Source: Octopus vulgaris
Taxonomy: Eukaryota
Assembly: GCA_951406725.2 (NCBI GenBank)
Contig: OX597815.1
Span: forward strand, 174,468,001-174,532,000
DNA length: 64,000 nucleotides
Direction: 5' to 3'
Positions 1,551 through 25,842 of the stretch are shown piece after piece; position 1 is the first letter of the stretch, and each line of letters begins with the position of its first letter. The notes under the pieces were generated by a model, which saw only the letters and a list, made by a program, of their open reading frames with translations, had not been told where the DNA came from and ran no database searches. A program made the position numbers and the translations under genes.

Positions 1551-2692
1551 CTTTGCTCAGGCCTCTACTTGGTACTTTCTTCACCATCTAATAATATTCT
1601 TCATAATACGTTAGCGTGGTGTCAAATTGTAAATGGACCAAACGATTAACGAGACTGAGCTTGTGACTTAAGTTCTTTGGCTCACTGCTCTTTACATTTC
1701 TCATACTGTTAATACCTGAGATAGATATGAATATCACGCAATTTCATTCCACCTTCCGTTGGAATTATCGACGAGGACTTTGTGTCTACGTGGGCAATTA
1801 ATATTTATATTGTACAATATTTTTTAACATCACGAAGAAATGAAATATATAAAGGTCTTAAAGAATAAGGAATTTTTTAGAATTTTCCTTATAAAAATAT
1901 TTTTTGAAAATACACTTCGTTGAAATAACGATATTAAACGCTAGTGTAATATACTGAATGTCGAACGCAAGAGAAATTATAATTGACGAAGATGCACTGG
2001 AAAAAAAAAACTTATTTTATATGTGTGTCACCATGAAGAAGCAGTATCCTTGATCTTAGTGTTGTCCCCCGAGACTTGTGAGATTGAGACGGTTCATATT
2101 CAGTTTAAATGTGTAATTGGACGTCTGAAAACGAAATTCCTGACGATTAGGGAATTGAACGAGAATTGGTCATAGTGATACACGCGTAGAGTGGGGAATG
2201 AGGAAAGGAGAGACAGATGGATGTTGGTAAAGGTAGTATGCAACAAGCAAATTATGTGGACCACAGGTAATTGTAGTAGCAATGATAATAGAAGAAAGAG
2301 TAAAGAGACAGCGTTGATATGAGTTAGAGACCGAAGTTTTCTAACCCATATCAGTGAATCTTTGTCAATCAACCCATTGGCTTTCATATGGATGTGTTCT
2401 AAGTTGTTTCTGTACATAAGCAGTCAGTGTTCTATCTATGAGAGCAGTATTCCATTAGGGATCTCACTTGTAATGAATGAGCAACTGTTCAGAGCTAAAG
2501 TATTTTCTGACCCTGAAGAAGACTAGTCTTTGGTATATATTTTTTGCCATGTTATATATATATATATATATATATTATGGAGCAATAAAGATTCAAGTCA
2601 ATTTTAATGAATTTACTTGAATATGGTACCTAACTTAGATGCACCAAAAAACTATACGGTTTTAACCATACAGTAATGTGGGGTGATTATAA

Positions 2693-3013
2693 GCGAGAAA
2701 GAAGCAACAAGAATGGATAAGTTTTTAGTACAATCGTTTCATACAAAGACAGGCTTTATTAAAAGTTGCAAAAATTGCAGCATATAAACGTGTCCCGTAC
2801 TCATCAGCTAAAATACATGTGAGTTCTCTAGACATCTACATTACTTCATGAGTATAGCCTCAACCACTAAGATGTCTAGAGAACTCACATGTATTTTAGC
2901 TGATGAGTACGGGACACGTTTATATGCTGCAATTTTGCAACTTTTAATAAAGCCTGTCTTTGTATGAAACGATTGTACTAAAAACTTATCCATTCTTGTT
3001 GCTTCTTTCTCGC
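2693..3013. mobile_element. Fold-back element (about 145-bp near-perfect inverted arms), Penelope pLTR-like, in (TA)n context
   Basis: Arms 2693-2837 and 2870-3013 are reverse complements apart from a 1-nt indel; each carries a hammerhead core; (TA)n follows directly. Confidence 0.85.
2894..2983 (+). ncRNA. Minimal type I hammerhead ribozyme (mirror copy on the minus strand at about 2723-2813)
   Basis: TTTTAG-CTGATGA-GTAC...GTAT-GAAAC-GATT-GTA^CTAAAA: 6-bp stem I, intact core, long stem II, 2-bp stem III; predicted cleavage after 2977. Confidence 0.75.
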
Positions 3014-3047
<34 letters not shown>

Positions 3048-3210: not shown

Positions 3211-3275
3211 ATAATACAAAATAAGGAAATGGAGAAATACAAGATGTATTTCTCCATTTCCTTATTTTGTATTAT
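3211..3275. repeat. Perfect 31-bp-arm palindrome
   Basis: ATAATACAAAATAAGGAAATGGAGAAATACA-aga-reverse complement, running into (TA)n. Confidence 0.85.
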
Positions 3276-3354
3276 ATATATATATATATATATATATTAT
3301 GGAGATGTACTTGCATAGAAAGTGACTTGATCTGAGATCGTGTGCTGGAACAAA

Positions 3355-3599
3355 AACAATTGCAGCGTGGAAGGTGTTTATAAGCCATTTAAGAAACACA
3401 CAAAACCGTTAGATTCACTTCAACATTTAAATTTAATTTGTTGCATCTCAGATGCAGCACAAAGCTTTGTCAGTGAACAGGTCGCGACCTGAAAGCGACG
3501 AAAATATTTTGACAAATTAAATTTAAATGTTGAAGTGAATCTAACGGATTTTGTGTGTTTCTTAAATGGCTTATAAACACCTTCCACACTGCAATTGTT
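3355..3599. mobile_element. Fold-back element (about 87-bp arms) between (TA)n tracts
   Basis: Arms 3355-3441 and 3512-3599 are near-perfect reverse complements; a hammerhead-like motif sits at the loop/right-arm junction. Confidence 0.85.
3466..3516 (+). ncRNA. Putative variant minimal hammerhead (G3-C8 core)
   Basis: TTTGTCA-GTGAACA-G-GTCGC..GCGAC-GAAA-ATAT-TT^TGACAAA: 7-bp stem I, 5-bp stem II, 1-bp stem III with a palindromic loop. Confidence 0.5.
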
Positions 3600-3972
3600 A
3601 TATATATATATGAAATCATCAATAATTGTGAGGTGTGGTATTTGTTACAACTTTGAGGGTTTAAATTGCATGTTGTTCTTGAGTATGACTAAGAGGGTGA
3701 GGTACAAGATTGTTTCTTTTATACACGTAATGATAATATCTTTGTGCTGCTGAAGTAGACAAGATTATGTTCCCAGTGGTAAGCCTCTATTCATGGAGGA
3801 AGTGCAGGTTTGATGTTAGATGTAAAGGTGGTCTGTGAATCATGCCTGTGTGCAGAAGGTTAGGGAAAAGTGAAAATTGGTAGCATCTGCATAAGATTGA
3901 GCATCATTAGGAGTGACAGCAAGTAAATCATTAATATAGTAAGGAAAATGCATGAGCAACACAGCTGAACTC

Positions 3973-14074: not shown

Positions 14075-14203
14075 CAGCAGAAAATTCAACAAAACCTGTT
14101 ACTCTGAGTTTCCCGTTGCCGTTCATCGGACATTCTAGCACAACCTGTCCGTTGAACGGCAACGGGAAACTCAGAGTAACAGGTTTTGTTGAATTTTCTG
14201 CTG
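14075..14203. mobile_element. Fold-back element (58-bp arms) carrying minimal hammerhead-like motifs, next to (TA)n
   Basis: Arms 14075-14132 and 14146-14203 differ at one base. Plus arm: ACCTGT-CCGTTGA-ACG(GCAA)CGG-GAAACT(CAG)AGTA^ACAGGT. The minus arm has CCGATGA. Confidence 0.8.
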
Positions 14204-14377
14204 GTCCCGGTGCGCGCACTCGAGTACTCGTGCATCCACGCTAGCTAGTTGTGACTAGTCGATCCTTACTTTGTGTTCTCGTGTTTTATTTACTTTGCTA
14301 GGTAGCCGTTGTAGGATTGACTAGTCACGACTAGCTAGTGCGGATGCGCGAATAAGCAAGTGCGCGCACAGGGACCA
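14202..14377. repeat. GC-rich imperfect hairpin (about 67-bp arms): MITE or 5' end of the CRE element
   Basis: TGGTCCCGGTGCGCGCACT...GACTAGTCGATCCT pairs with AGGATTGACTAGTC...AGTGCGCGCACAGGGACCA with about 10 mismatches, mostly transitions. Confidence 0.8.
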
Positions 14378-14393
14378 CTCTTCTTAAGTAGTA

Positions 14394-15975: not shown

Positions 15976-16148
15976 AGCTTCTCGCTCAGCTGTTCAAGAT
16001 CTTTTATTGTTAAATAATACTCGTTTCACATCAGCTTTTGTTTGGCAGTGCTAGCCTGGTTGCTGGATGGCTTGTTAAAATTATTAGACATAGAAAACCT
16101 TTTCTGAATTCAGTGTTTTAAAATAAGGGTTCTGAAAAGAAAGGAATA

Positions 16149-16656
16149 ATGAGTATAGAAGCAGATGACCTGTGGAAACTAAATCGTTTCTTGTCTATTG
16201 GAACTGAAGGGCCTTTATATGAATTTGGAGAACAAATCCTCAAAAAAGAAAGCGCTCCAACTATTTCAAAACTGATTGAAGATGGGAAAGGTAAAGAAGT
16301 TGTCAAAGAGGTACTTGCATATACCAAAGAAGGTAAATCGATTCGTAAAACCCCATTGCTTTTTTGTCTGGCTCTCTGTACACGGAGTTCTGATAAAATA
16401 GCAAAACGAGATGCCTACAAGGCTTTGGCTGAGGTTTGTACTTTACCGACCGACTTATTCACATTTATAGCCTTTTCTCAGACTTTAAACAACCCTTCTA
16501 AAGGATGGGGTAAACTTCAGAGAAAGACCATTAGTTCCTGGTACAATTCCAAGGATCCCAAACAGCTAGCTGAGAATGCAACACGTTATAAATCCAAAGC
16601 CGGTTGGACGCATAAGGATGTTTTGCGTTTAACCCATACAAAAGCTTCTAATGATG
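16149..16656 (+). CDS. RO60: Ro60 (60 kDa SS-A/Ro, TROVE domain) family protein, first coding exon
   Basis: LNRFLSIGTEG..LIEDGKGKEVV..PLLFCLALC..EVCTLPTDLFTFI..WG..WYNSK..YKSKAGWTHKDVLRLTH aligns with the Ro60 N-terminal HEAT ring. Ends G|GTAAGT (donor at 16657, phase 1). An upstream in-frame TAA lies at 16119-16121. Confidence 0.93.
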
Positions 16657-19600
16657 GTAAGTTAGAAACATTATTATTATTATTGTTGTTGTAAATGCAA
16701 CAGTTAACTTATTCTGTTTACCTAAGAAAAAGAAGTAAATCGATAAAACAAATAATGTCAATTTTTCTATCACTATAATTACTTTTATAGAGAAATAGCT
16801 TGTCCTGTTCCTAATGTCAACACAGATTCCCACGCATTAGAGTCAACCTTTCTGAATTGTCAAATGAATTGATTATCAATTCTCTGTTTGTAATATCTCA
16901 CCTGTTATCTCGATTGTATATACATAATGCGTGTGTGTAGAAGCGAAAGAGATCGCGATGCACTGTACCAGTTAATTTCACAAAGTTTATAGTATTTCTA
17001 CATCTATTGTAATCGACAGATTCTGATTTGTTTGAAACAACCTGAAATACTGTTATGTGAATGGCATCATTTGAACAAAGCTTTTGACAAGCAACGATGT
17101 TTAAGTACCAATTATGTAAGTTGCAAACAAAAATAAATAAATAAAAATACTAACAAAAGCGTAGTATGAACGTAATTAAAACAAAGAAAACTATCTGATT
17201 CTCACTGGTATTTTCAATATATATTAACATTGATCAATATGAAATAAACTATTAGCAGCTTACTTATTTCGATACAGGTAAATTAGTCTCGAATGTTGTA
17301 AGATGAATTATTTTGGTAGTAAAGAAAGTGCTTAAGACTTCAGAATTTGAATAAATATTTTCTGAGAGATGAAAAAAAATGAATGAATTTAAGATTATAT
17401 TTCTCAAAACTATGCTTTTATTCGGACAAACGTATATTTAATTTCTTGACCAATTTATGAATACACACGTTTTAGCCATACAAATGCACGTGTTACTTAA
17501 GATTATTCTTCGATAAAATACACGATATGTATGTTTATTTTCATTTACATCGGATTTGGGCTAATATCTAAAACAAAAGCCAAGAAACTGGCTTCTATCG
17601 TATAATCATAGTAATCTATTCGTAATCCATTGGTTGCGTACTAGAATAATAGCTTGCGAGTTTGCTTTTATAACGGCCTATGTCGACTTTCTAATTAAGC
17701 TGCCTATAGTGCACGTATCTAGCGTAAGCACACCGGTGAGATAACGATTTCAACGTTGTAAACTTTCTGCTGGCATCTGTAAATGGATGTAACCGTTTAA
17801 GTAGTTTCCTCTTTAAATATTAAACACACTAATATGGCGAACACCTTTGGCAGTTGATGAATTTTCCGCTAATCGAGCCCGTCACTCGATTTCGATTCCT
17901 CTTTTGACACTATAATACAAGATACAAGTACATTTGTATTTTTATTGCGTGTGAGACTTTCTCATCCCATGAACATTCTACACGCCGTTTACTTCGACTT
18001 GGAAACCCAAGTCAACGAGAAAACACTAGTGTTGTCTTACTCAGACTGCTGTTTTAATTCTCGACTATATAGATTTAGTTTTCACACCTCTAGGGTTAAT
18101 TAAATATGTGTCAAGGGGACCGTTTGTAATATAGTAGAACTATAAAACTGTTAAGATGTTTGGTACAGCTGTTTAATAATTCCCTGGCTTCTGTTTAAAA
18201 TGCCATCAAAGCAAGAAAACAAACTTGCAATAGCCGAACTTGCATCCTACCCGAACAAAGAAGTGAATTTCGACCACTTAAAGTTATGCGGACTAAGCTT
18301 GCAAATGGCTTAAAAGATAAGATAAAAATGTGTCCTTTTGCAGTCTGGAGAGATGATGTTGCCCTTGGCTTTTTTAGGCCCTTCTACCCTGGGGAACTTG
18401 ATAACTGGGTGTGCTTAGTGCTTGTGAGAGATATAACGTGGAGTATGAGAGTACTTTAAGTGGGAAAGGTGAGGTTGCATAGCTGTCAATTTACCCTGTC
18501 AAAGCCATTGATGCAGACTAACAGTGGGTCAACATTTGAAGGGCGGTAGTGAATGTTTATATTTAGGATGGATATCAGAATTTATTAATGCATGCATAAA
18601 CCAAAAGTCATTAGCACGCACACACTTATATACACATATACGTGCATCTACTCTGTTTTCAATTGCTGATGGAATTTTGTTTCTTTCTATTCTATATATT
18701 CAAGACTATATTTATTATACTTAAAGAGAGAGAGAGAGATTGATGAAAACTGATGGTGGTTTGCATCGGCAAATCTTATAATAGTGAAGTTTATACGAGT
18801 TTGGACACGTTTGTATACCCATTGAAGAATAGGGATCAGGAGTTTCTAGGCTAACAGTGCATTTAAGAAAAAAAAAAAAAAAAATTTCTAACTATCTATA
18901 TATTTCTTAAGCCTTCCTTTTAAATGTTAACACTGTTAGACTTTTCAATGAATAATAATGTGATGGAGCTTGTTTTGAAAGTATTTATTTATTTTCATTC
19001 TATGTAAGCAGTAAATTTGCATTTTTCTGCAAATTTCCTCCCAAGCGGTTCTAAATCAAAATTTATTTGCGAAGTATGGGAATGATTGATTATATGGTTT
19101 AAAACATAAAAACAAGACGATTTTTTCCAAACAGTTTTTCTACCTTCGATATTTGTATATACAGTAGATACATGAATATGTTGGAAACTCATTAGGGAAT
19201 TATAATAAAGACTAATCGATACTGTATTGCCGAAAAATTGTCAAGTGTATCGTTAAAAAGTTAAGCATTGATTGTTTTATGTTGTTTATTTAGACCAGGG
19301 TTTTCTCATAAGGGTAGGGGGAGTCTGAGGATTGAACAAGAGGTCGGACAAATCACCATGTTTAATAAGACATGGTTTCAAACTTTTTAAACTTGGTTCA
19401 TCACTATGGTGAAGAAAGAAGTATATAGATGCTCTCTGTTTTGTCTTCTCATTAATAAATTGTGTGTAGGGTGGTGATTTCACTTATACCCGGGCCTGGT
19501 ATATTTTGTCAATCTTCATTGAGTAAACCTCTGAAGAAAGTCGTTTTAGATATGACAACCCGAATTGTTTTATAACATTACCTAATGAGTCCGTTCTTTT

Positions 19601-19800
19601 TAAGATGCTATGGTCTGATTTGAAAGAATGTGTTTATTATTTCTAGCAGGTTGAGAGACACCGTAAGGACTCTATAATTGTGTAGTAAAATGTATGGCCC
19701 TATAGTAAAATTTAGAAAATCTAAAGTATTAGAATATTGTTTACATGATGATATTTCGTCTAAACTAGGCCTTATTCTCTTTATTTACATATATATATAA

Positions 19801-20070
19801 AAGTACACAAACGGAGTTTAAAATTTACAACAGCTGTTTCAATAGAATTTTATTAATATATTTATTGATTACTTTATAGCATATATTCCACCATCTTCAG
19901 ATAAAATTTTGTATCCAATATGTTAGTTGGATTTGTCATCTCACCTGTTTATACCTGTTTAAAATTTTATCTGAAGATGGTAGATTACATGCTATAATGT
20001 TTTCTCTGAATACATCAATAAAATTCTACCAAAACAGCTGTCATAAACTTTGAACCCCATTTGTGTTTTC
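19801..20070. mobile_element. Diverged fold-back element with two opposed hammerhead motifs
   Basis: Minus 19824-19905: TTTAT-CTGAAGA..GAAAC-AGCT-GTT^GTAAA. Plus 19966-20047: TTTAT-CTGAAGA-TGGTAGA..TCTACC-AAAAC-AGCT-GTC^ATAAA (G12A). Confidence 0.75.
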
Positions 20071-20869
20071 TTTTATGCCTGTACCTCACCAAGAACCAGT
20101 CCTGAGTTAGATCCAGTTTAAATTGGATTTGGTACTTACATATCTACAGTTCACTACTAACACATGATACCTTCATGATTATTTTACTTCACTGTGAACC
20201 CTATGTTATTGTACCAAGCCATTTCAGGTGTCTTCCATGTTGACATGCCTAGATTCTAATGAATCCTTTAGCTACACACACACACACACACACACACACA
20301 TCAAATCAATCGATTAGAAACAATGAACATTAAGAGTTTTCCCATGGTTTAGAATCTTCTTGGACTTTTGTGATAAGAAAAAAAAATCACTTTAACCATA
20401 AGAATTCATTTCCACTGTTGTTATTTAGTTCTCCATCTGCCATTTGAGTAAACCCCTGATCATCGCCCACCTTTTTTTCAGACTTTATATACCTACAACT
20501 GTTTTATACCTTCATAATAAAAAACTTTCTAAAGATGCTCAAAATCATCATGTGGGATGTCTTGTAATTCTATACTGTTAACATAGTCAAACTTTTATCA
20601 TTTTTATTATCTTTATCTTGTGCTTCAACCTCAAATTGCTAATCCTTCTACAAATTCAAATCTTAATATCTTATAAGTATTAAAATTTTCTCATATTTTC
20701 ACTGATTTTACATTCTTCATCATAAGTTGATTTGCACTTGTTCCTAGTTATCTAAAATATTTTCAAAGAAAATAGTTTCACTTTCCTTAACCCGTATTAC
20801 TTAACCTCCCACACACACACTTTTATTCTTCATTCATCTTCTGCATTTTTCTTTTCTTTTAAGTATCAT

Positions 20870-24544: not shown

Positions 24545-25230
24545 CATCATCATCATCGTCATTTAACGTCTGTTTTCCATGCTGGCATCAATTGGAAGGT
24601 TTGACTGAGCACTGGCAGGCCAGAAGGCTGTATCAGGCTCCAATCCAATTTGGCAAGGTTTCTACAGCTGGATGCCTTTCCTAATGCCAACCACTCCAAG
24701 AGTGTAGTGGGTGCTTTTTACATGCCACCAGCGTGGATGCCAGTCAGGCAGCACTGGCATTGGCTACACTCAAATGGTGCTTTTTATGTGCCACCAGCAT
24801 GGATGCCAGTCAGGCAGCACTGGCATTGGCTACACTCAAATGGTGCTTTTTACATGCCACCAGCGTGGATGCCAGTCAGGCAGCACTGGCATCGGCTACA
24901 CTCAAATGGTGCTTTTTATGTGCCACCAGCATGGATGCTAGTCAGGCAGCACTGGCATTGGCCACTCTCAAATGCTGGTTTTTACATGGCATCAGCCTCA
25001 ATTACAATTTCACTTGGCTCAACAGGTCTTCACAATCATGGCATATCAGCCAACGATTGAAGGGTGCTTTTAAACAGGCCAGTTATGCAACACTGACATC
25101 AGCCATAACTACAATCTCACTTGGCTTGCCAGGTCTTCTCAAGTACAACATATCTCCAAAGATCTTGGTCGTTTGTCATTGCCTTTGTGAAGTCCAACGT
25201 TCGAAGGTCGTGCTTCACCATGCCTTTCTG
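24545..25230 (-). mobile_element. RTE-tail SINE with an internal 63-bp x4 minisatellite (about 24710-24990)
   Basis: Family tail motif plus repeats of GGTGCTTTTTAYRTGCCACCAGCRTGGATGCCAGTCAGGCAGCACTGGCATTGGCTACACTCAAAT. Confidence 0.85.
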
Positions 25231-25413
25231 GGTCTACCTCTGCTATTGTCTTCCTGAGTCTACCACTTTCACAGTTCCCTCCACTGTTAGAGTGTGACAC
25301 TTCTTTACACAGCCATCCCCATCCATACGCATCACATGACGATCCCAGTGCAGTTGTCTCTCTTGCACACCATATCTGATGCTTCTTATGTCCAACTTTT
25401 CTCAGGGCACATT

Positions 25414-25842
25414 AAAAGAAAAGGAAAACAAAACCAAGGTGGGACAAACATCTCAGGTCATTTAGAATATTTGATTAAAGGTGGATCAAAAAAAGAGAAG
25501 TAGAAGTAATGTCTTACAGCTGTTTCTGGGATCTCTCAACACCCCCATACACTGGGTATTCCATCATCAGAGACAAGGTGTGTATGCAAGAAAGCTCCAG
25601 ATGGAGAATTTACAGCAGACAGAAGAATGGAACAGTAGATAGGAGAATAAAATTCACAGTTCATCTTGTTCTAGAGAGTATGGCGGTTTCTTCTATTCAT
25701 TGTAAATGCTCTGTCTGGGACTTTCCCAGAAACAGCTGTAAGACATTACTTCTACTTCTTTTTTGACTCACCCTTATTCTAATTAAATATTCCAAATGAC
25801 CTGAGATGCTTGTCCTGCCTTGGTTCTGTTTTCCTTTTCTTT
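25414..25842. mobile_element. Fold-back element (about 115-bp diverged arms), Penelope pLTR-like
   Basis: AAAGAAAAGGAAAACA..ATCTCAGGTCATTT..GTCTTACAGCTGTTTCTGGGA is mirrored at 25724-25842. Confidence 0.8.
25510..25575 (-). ncRNA. Minimal type I hammerhead ribozyme
   Basis: TGTCT-CTGATGA-TGG..CCA-GAAAC-AGCT-GTA^AGACA: intact core, 5-bp stem I, palindromic ACAGCTGT stem III. Confidence 0.8.

Follow-up and report, generated by a model that had tools for sequence, protein, structure and literature searches.

A Twin-Hammerhead Inverted Repeat of Octopus vulgaris, Very Likely a By-Product of Penelope-like Element Insertion and Perhaps of Twin Priming

Introduction

The commonest arrangement of Penelope-like elements (PLEs) is described as a head-to-head one (PMC3846280, PMC8557442, PMC8969392). 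That a ‘tail’ is present at only one end has been published as well (PMC3846280, PMC8557442), and how tandem or inverted PLE insertions form has been called an open task (PMC8557442).

Certain PLEs also carry hammerhead motifs. A single minimal hammerhead motif is reported not to cleave in vitro, and dual minimal hammerheads, located on opposite strands and 100-700 bp apart, were reported in 2014 (PMC4209133). Activity of the hammerhead of an anole PLE needed protein, with that hammerhead being dispensable for insertion. The purified PLE protein of the same work, predicted to be dimeric, cuts and extends both strands and possesses two tail-defining starts, with cleavage by the hammerhead being unnecessary for it (PMC11167929). 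For Octopus vulgaris, recently active Penelope families have been listed, in a paper the main text of which is without hammerheads (PMC13282606).

Anatomy of the Insertion

The ‘window’ is the whole stretch of O. vulgaris DNA that was analyzed, 64 kb in length. A sequence-only reading of it had described a near-perfect, 145-bp inverted repeat with one outward-pointing hammerhead per arm, and this description is borne out. The arms, at 2693-2837 (145 nt) and 2870-3013 (144 nt), are separated by a 32-nt loop and mismatch solely by a 1-base indel within a T run, and both of them match a strict hammerhead descriptor. The same reading's assignment of a Penelope-like origin, along with a minimal hammerhead possessing a tiny, palindromic stem III, is upheld as well. 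Two features had been overlooked, i.e., that (TA)n borders the insertion on both sides and that the element continues leftward, as a ‘tail’.

Read from the left, a (TA)n target microsatellite (2553-2575) is followed by this tail (2581-2687, minus strand), which consists of nucleotides 1-109 of a next unit, is found on the left or short arm only, and is 95% identical to a full-length copy, L047. The left arm as a whole (2688-2837, minus strand; 99% identical to L047) corresponds, in inverted orientation, to approximately the final 150 nt of the unit. Its inner end, ATCT (2834-2837), is a 4-nt microhomology at the inversion junction, common to both arms, and loose ends of contigs at 2834 show natural upstream sequence. 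The loop (2838-2869) is ordinary element sequence, a 5' extension of the right arm. As this sequence is sense on the plus strand, the right arm is the long arm, the one that is tail-less. That arm (2870-3014, plus strand) is an element 3' end with an extra G before the (TA)n of the right flank (3015-3044). In terms of L047, that is, the order is (TA)n, tail (unit 109 to 1), last 150 nt inverted, ATCT, last 185 nt in sense, G, and (TA)n. Because both flanks are (TA)n, a target-site duplication cannot be delimited at insertions of this family.

At 3014, as at most tail-less ends, the extra G separates (TA)n from the end of the element, in place of a T that is present in the element itself. Tailed ends, along with both ends within a second family that is represented at 14075, mostly display G followed by TATA too. 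This G could reflect either untemplated addition of C or a cut after TATAC.

That the repeat is an assembly or sequencing fold-back artifact is scarcely credible. Contigs from four runs, three presumed RNA and one presumed DNA, contain sequence of this family, and none bridges the 2693 junction, which is weakly in favor of an artifact as contigs break in repeats. The ends, however, are asymmetric, with tail on one side and extra G on the other, the junction has its 4-nt microhomology, one indel distinguishes the arms, and the same anatomy is seen at 62 loci with different junctions.

The Parent Element

The genome searched consists of 2.8 Gb in 227 contigs, among which the 2693 arm has 43 scored matches at 98-100% identity. 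One protein match, at 71%, is named from Octopus sinensis. Core patterns of its family have at least 798 exact matches, with a second pattern having 1,116 and controls 0. The natural full-length copy, L047, has a 4,650-nt unit (4.65 kb) with a 984-aa frame consisting of RT and then a C-terminal GIY-YIG. A Pfam scan of this whole ORF gave no match, with weak ones coming from sub-domain scans only (RVT_1, E 4e-4; GIY-YIG, E 2e-3), both under the curated cut-off, and a PDB profile search with the element protein returned 0 matches. YRDD, DKTG, and Cys/His residues can be read directly in the frame, the CCHH motif being a feature of EN+ PLEs. A Cys-rich linker, CKCRIKSKCPAPGLC, precedes the GIY-YIG. 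This linker and the (TA)n preference seen in the flanks both are features of the Neptune clade, with such a linker being common to Neptune and Nematis (PMC8557442). Partial tandems, forming a pLTR, are found at L047, L060, and L063.

Between RT and EN, at residues of approximately 520-830, the L047 ORF contains long Asn-rich inserts, as described in rotifer PLEs, and the element's 1.6-kb 3' UTR contains an internal repeat of approximately 160 nt as well as an A/G-rich tract. L063/L149 (G000:C2:37617241-37627973) is a palindrome of approximately 10.7 kb, made up of two full units plus pLTRs, one outer end of which is tailed and the other tail-less.

We consider it very likely that the 2693 repeat is a 5'-truncated insertion of a young, endonuclease-bearing PLE in (TA)n, that is, a by-product of PLE insertion. 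A MITE or fold-back DNA transposon is excluded by the asymmetric ends, by a centre which varies from copy to copy, and by linkage to an RT ORF.

Hammerhead Motifs and Their Polarity

The strict descriptor, applied to both strands of the window, has three matches: 2894-2983 on the plus strand (core 2900-2906, GAAA 2966-2969, predicted cut after 2977), 2813-2723 on the minus strand (predicted cut after 2729), and 25575-25510. The first two, which are type I minimal motifs, thus point outward from opposite strands, and each consists of a 6-bp stem I (TTTTAG/CTAAAA), CUGAUGA, a 59-nt stem II, GAAA, a stem III that is complementary to itself, and GUA as the triplet. The conserved core is present, as are all three stems, with the hammerhead fold obtained only under constraint, and at 10.1-11.1 both arms have G-U instead of the usual G-C pair. 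An Rfam scan returned no hammerhead match at E<=1, only sub-threshold matches of the miRNA-hairpin type. For an isolated 90-nt motif, the hammerhead fold is predicted to lie 3.6 kcal/mol above the motif's own free fold, and stem III strands are predicted to pair intermolecularly at -7.8 kcal/mol. As the two motifs are on opposite strands, they never are found on one RNA and are unable to form the cis dimer which such motifs are thought to need.

Counted back from the unit end, the motif starts at 126 nt and its predicted cut is at 41 nt. Any arm longer than 126 nt therefore includes a hammerhead, such that twin hammerheads are passengers.

Polarity of the arms is not random, as had been noted in the sequence-only reading and as genome matches now confirm. 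Among neighbors up to 10 kb apart, for the first 100 of 798 matches of the 2693 family, 36 are head-to-head, 0 tail-to-tail, and 2 tandem. For the first 100 matches of the 14075 family these numbers are 23 head-to-head versus 2 tail-to-tail, with both exceptions being gaps between neighboring insertions. Polarity is fixed because both outer ends are the element 3' end. That the antisense arm comes first on either strand is correct too, this being simply the meaning of head-to-head.

The sequence-only reading had seen in this layout self-masking ribozyme cassettes, in which dsRNA keeps the ribozyme silent until transcription from the loop, or ADAR editing, activates it. In part its premise holds as prediction: the inverted-repeat strand has a predicted fold of -254 kcal/mol (z -45 versus 100 shuffles), which in read-through RNA would pair the motif within a 150-bp duplex, that is, a long duplex predicted to be without active ribozyme. 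Motifs also are intact in 162 of 169 scored arms, these representing loci largely picked by those same motifs and a family that is young. As an insertion by-product also would display fixed polarity, the polarity test cannot separate these two ideas. Selected cassettes of this kind nevertheless seem highly improbable, and the functional claim is not sustained. Arms range from 90 to 4,408 nt in length, inversions carry two complete hammerheads, one, or none, with the second motif being incomplete in 5 of 62, and 26 insertions consist of one arm only. Old pairs within the window are decayed, a hammerhead at 3466 is unpaired, the isolated motif is disfavored against its free fold as noted above, and the loop, which differs from insertion to insertion, consists of ordinary 3' UTR of the element. 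Three of four A>G places in the run contigs are frequent in the presumed DNA run too; the fourth, 2878, is rare there and is paired with a C>T change. As a ribozyme device the 2693 pair is unimportant, being an ordinary truncated retrotransposon copy.

Other Repeats of the Window

Recurrence of this layout at 14075, 19801, and 25414, another claim of that reading, stands in terms of polarity, but these are sequence families distinct from the 2693 element and none has two intact motifs. The stump at 14075-14203, itself head-to-head, comes from a second PLE family, which is very abundant, with 6,029 core matches, and has an RT plus GIY-YIG ORF between arms. Neither arm of the stump has an intact motif, with the right-arm core reading CCGTTGA (A6 lost) and stem I of the left arm being only 3 nt. 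The right-arm end is interrupted by an unrelated, palindromic, MITE-like repeat (14204-14385; 1,433 candidates). The pair at 19797-20076 is old and decayed, with one core left (minus strand, 19900), AAAA for GAAA in the right arm, and arms that are 79% complementary. The pair at 25415-25842, also old, retains its complete motif on the minus strand (25575-25510), with the right arm truncated inside stem II and without CUGAUGA.

A neighboring insertion of another family, at 3286-3600, consists of tail (3286-3354), short arm (3355-3441, minus strand), and long, tail-less arm (3440-3600, plus strand), and a GIY-YIG ORF remnant is found beside a relative, L189. Its single hammerhead (3466-3516, plus strand) lies unpaired in the loop of the inversion and has a naturally swapped core pair, G3-C8 (GUGAACA), as do 11 of 14 relatives by descriptor, with 2,832 first-look candidates. 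A U3-A8 hammerhead variant has been reported (PMC4209133), and G3-C8 is known as an engineered partial rescue (PMC11167929).

A 65-nt hairpin beside (TA)n, at 3211-3275, is without hammerhead and possibly is a very short stump of yet another PLE family. A tandem repeat at 24605-25257 gives rise to repetitive open frames. The plus strand at 16122-16691 contains a TROVE-domain exon (Pfam E 1e-13), which we take to be Ro60-like.

Tails, Arms, and Junctions

Mapping covered 102 loci, picked by hammerhead or ORF matches such that arms of very small length are under-represented. In 65 entries, two adjacent arms both extend to the unit end, and exclusion of 3 of these (two insertions), which run into a further unit, leaves 62 simple inversions. 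Exactly one tail is present in 62 of the 62: on the long arm in 25, on the short arm in 18, and in 19 with arms that are symmetric (within 10 nt). In 12 simple inversions the tail-less arm exceeds the tailed arm in length by more than 100 nt. Those set-aside or complex loci which are readable (L047, L060, L063/L149, L085, L100, L117, L146, L148) similarly have one outer end tailed and the other tail-less, with the inverted piece of L148 being tail sequence only. The 14075 family has one tail in 40 of 42 inversions, the exceptions being the window copy, with its interrupted right end and no tail found, and another with a 22-nt partial second tail. Single-arm insertions, 26 in number, are tailed in 13 cases and tail-less in 13, and a search of these for remnants of a second arm found them at L148 and L051 only. 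Outer ends are fixed at two TATA-like motifs of the element.

The published reading of such insertions is one of self-priming, whereby antisense RNA or nascent cDNA folds back, a hairpin copy is made, and endonuclease resolution leaves a tail on one side (PMC3846280, PMC8557442). Several observations are in keeping with this. Near-symmetric palindromes are enriched, with arms stopping no more than 10 nt apart in 17 of 62 inversions versus a permutation mean of 1.75 and maximum of 8. Arms also are nearly identical, differing within insertions at 59 of 18,749 sites (0.31%) versus 2.3% between insertions, with the closest arm being an arm's own partner in 43 of 58 cases, though gene conversion or assembly polishing could raise this identity. 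An inverted copy at L143 resembles a snap-back. Here, however, the loop marks the primary strand, and in 18 of 43 asymmetric cases, 2693 included, it is the short arm which is tailed and the long arm which is not, whereas a fixed staggered cut would always tail the same arm. A tail on the short arm that is absent from the long arm could not come from copy-back of one cDNA, but is naturally fitted by two cDNAs primed from both target ends at the two start sites. Where the centre is a 4-nt palindrome without a loop (TGCA in L097; CTAG in L252, L255, and L263), annealing of two ends also is a better fit than a hairpin. As the route to the 2693 insertion, self-priming therefore appears doubtful, if a serious possibility.

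No recurrent difference between arms was found in the 2693 family. In the 14075 family an apparently systematic A/T arm difference was rejected as query bias, T being present in 0 of the first 100 family matches.

Junction sequence is noisier, even upon remapping to many references after mapping to a single reference had proved too noisy. Overlap of at least 2 nt is seen at 18 of 29 insert-free junctions versus 17% at random, under this noisy mapping and with the choice of best among many references inflating overlap. Apparent inserted bases are found at 33 of 62 junctions, several copied from nearby sequence and some being a mere effect of SNPs relative to the reference. Many junctions of the 14075 family (L251-L266) precede the hammerhead core by 5-20 nt, recurring on a CTAG palindrome.

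Twin Priming as a Possible Route

The presence of one tail, on either arm, in combination with arms copied from a single template, is an argument against self-priming as published and favors instead twin priming with joining of cDNA ends. We lean toward twin priming as the route of the head-to-head 2693 insertion. For the fuller version of this mechanism, i.e., twin target-primed reverse transcription in which a dimeric enzyme uses each end of a double-strand cut as primer, at two fixed, adjacent starts on one RNA, and the cDNAs then cross-prime their second strands, we would put the chances as about even. Such a route would combine L1-type twin priming with the activity, at two starts and on both strands, that is demonstrated for the anole PLE protein (PMC11167929).

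In this mechanism the GIY-YIG domain would cut both target strands. Of the two 3'-OH groups, one would prime where the unit ends and the second approximately 115 nt further downstream, where the tail ends, with a TATA-like RNA motif at each site. Antisense cDNAs would then stop, at 2693 after about 185 and 260 nt, and their 3' ends would anneal through a few bases, ATCT in this instance, with each cDNA templating the other's second strand. Symmetric palindromes would represent cases in which both cDNAs run to the same template end.

The two cDNAs might also have been copied, from the two target ends, on separate RNAs, usually of the same source locus. This would account for the one-tail rule and for independent arm lengths, and there are a few more divergent arm pairs (L003, 8/454; L032, 8/594; L064, 6/442). 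It leaves unexplained, however, the shared stop position of arms, and most arm pairs have just 0-1 substitutions despite the coexistence of several subfamilies. We view separate RNAs as improbable.

Twin priming from a single RNA has counterexamples of its own. The 42-nt inverted copy of L143 and an internal inverted piece of L048 begin at neither start site, and further internal inversions are present at L085, L100, and L135. Symmetric palindromes and arm identity, moreover, suit fold-back copying equally well. If true, twin priming would supply a single model for tail, head-to-head polarity, and second-strand synthesis, taking the place of self-priming from an antisense template. As a side effect, perfect hairpins, present in the genome by the hundreds to thousands, then could be a source for small-RNA silencing directed at the element.

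Comparison with Known Systems

With the twin priming of L1, for which Ostertag and Kazazian (2001) reportedly is the source, both target ends are said to prime cDNA on one RNA, with a microhomology junction. These are also the points of likeness to what is proposed here for PLEs. With L1 the second primer lies far upstream, resulting in inversion without duplication of the 3' end, whereas PLE starts are fixed and adjacent, and the 3' end is duplicated. In a literature search, none of the papers listed put forward twin priming for PLEs, with co-mentions of ‘Penelope’ and ‘twin priming’ concerning other subjects.

PAc Poseidon of the green anole (PMC11167929) is similar in having two RT starts which bound a tail, a hammerhead just upstream, and an AT-rich target. 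It differs in that the octopus starts are upstream of the ORF, at TATA-like motifs which are able to pair with the target. Inverted insertions are not addressed in the consulted portions of that paper.

Non-LTR retrozymes (10.64898/2026.07.22.740005) resemble the 2693 repeat in being short hammerhead repeats which are non-coding and originate from the ends of PLEs. Retrozymes, however, have their units in head-to-tail tandem and their motifs on a single strand, whereas the 2693 repeat is an inverted, truncated copy of a coding element, and as a candidate identity for it the retrozyme was rejected on this basis. Minimal type I hammerheads known from metazoan PLEs (PMC4209133) share with the octopus motif a CUGANGA/GAAA core, a tiny palindromic stem III, and location within terminal repeats. 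The octopus motif differs in its 59-nt stem II, G-U at 10.1-11.1, and GUA triplet.

The 2693 element is a further EN+ PLE of known kind, with a paired layout that already is published. Canonical EN+ PLE insertions (PMC3846280; PMC8557442, including its Fig. 2) likewise have an ORF consisting of RT and then a C-terminal GIY-YIG, partial tandems, a head-to-head inverted copy, a tail at one end, an AT-rich microsatellite target, and Asn-rich ORF inserts. Tails differ in length, at approximately 115 nt in the 2693 family and 70 in the 14075 family versus 30-40 nt in canonical PLEs. A strict count of tails on either arm was not found in the portions of these two papers examined, which invoke self-priming or EN resolution, whereas in octopus the one-tail rule is strict and applies to either arm. 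Holding in two families, that rule allows self-priming to be told apart from twin priming at the sequence level, a matter of modest importance.
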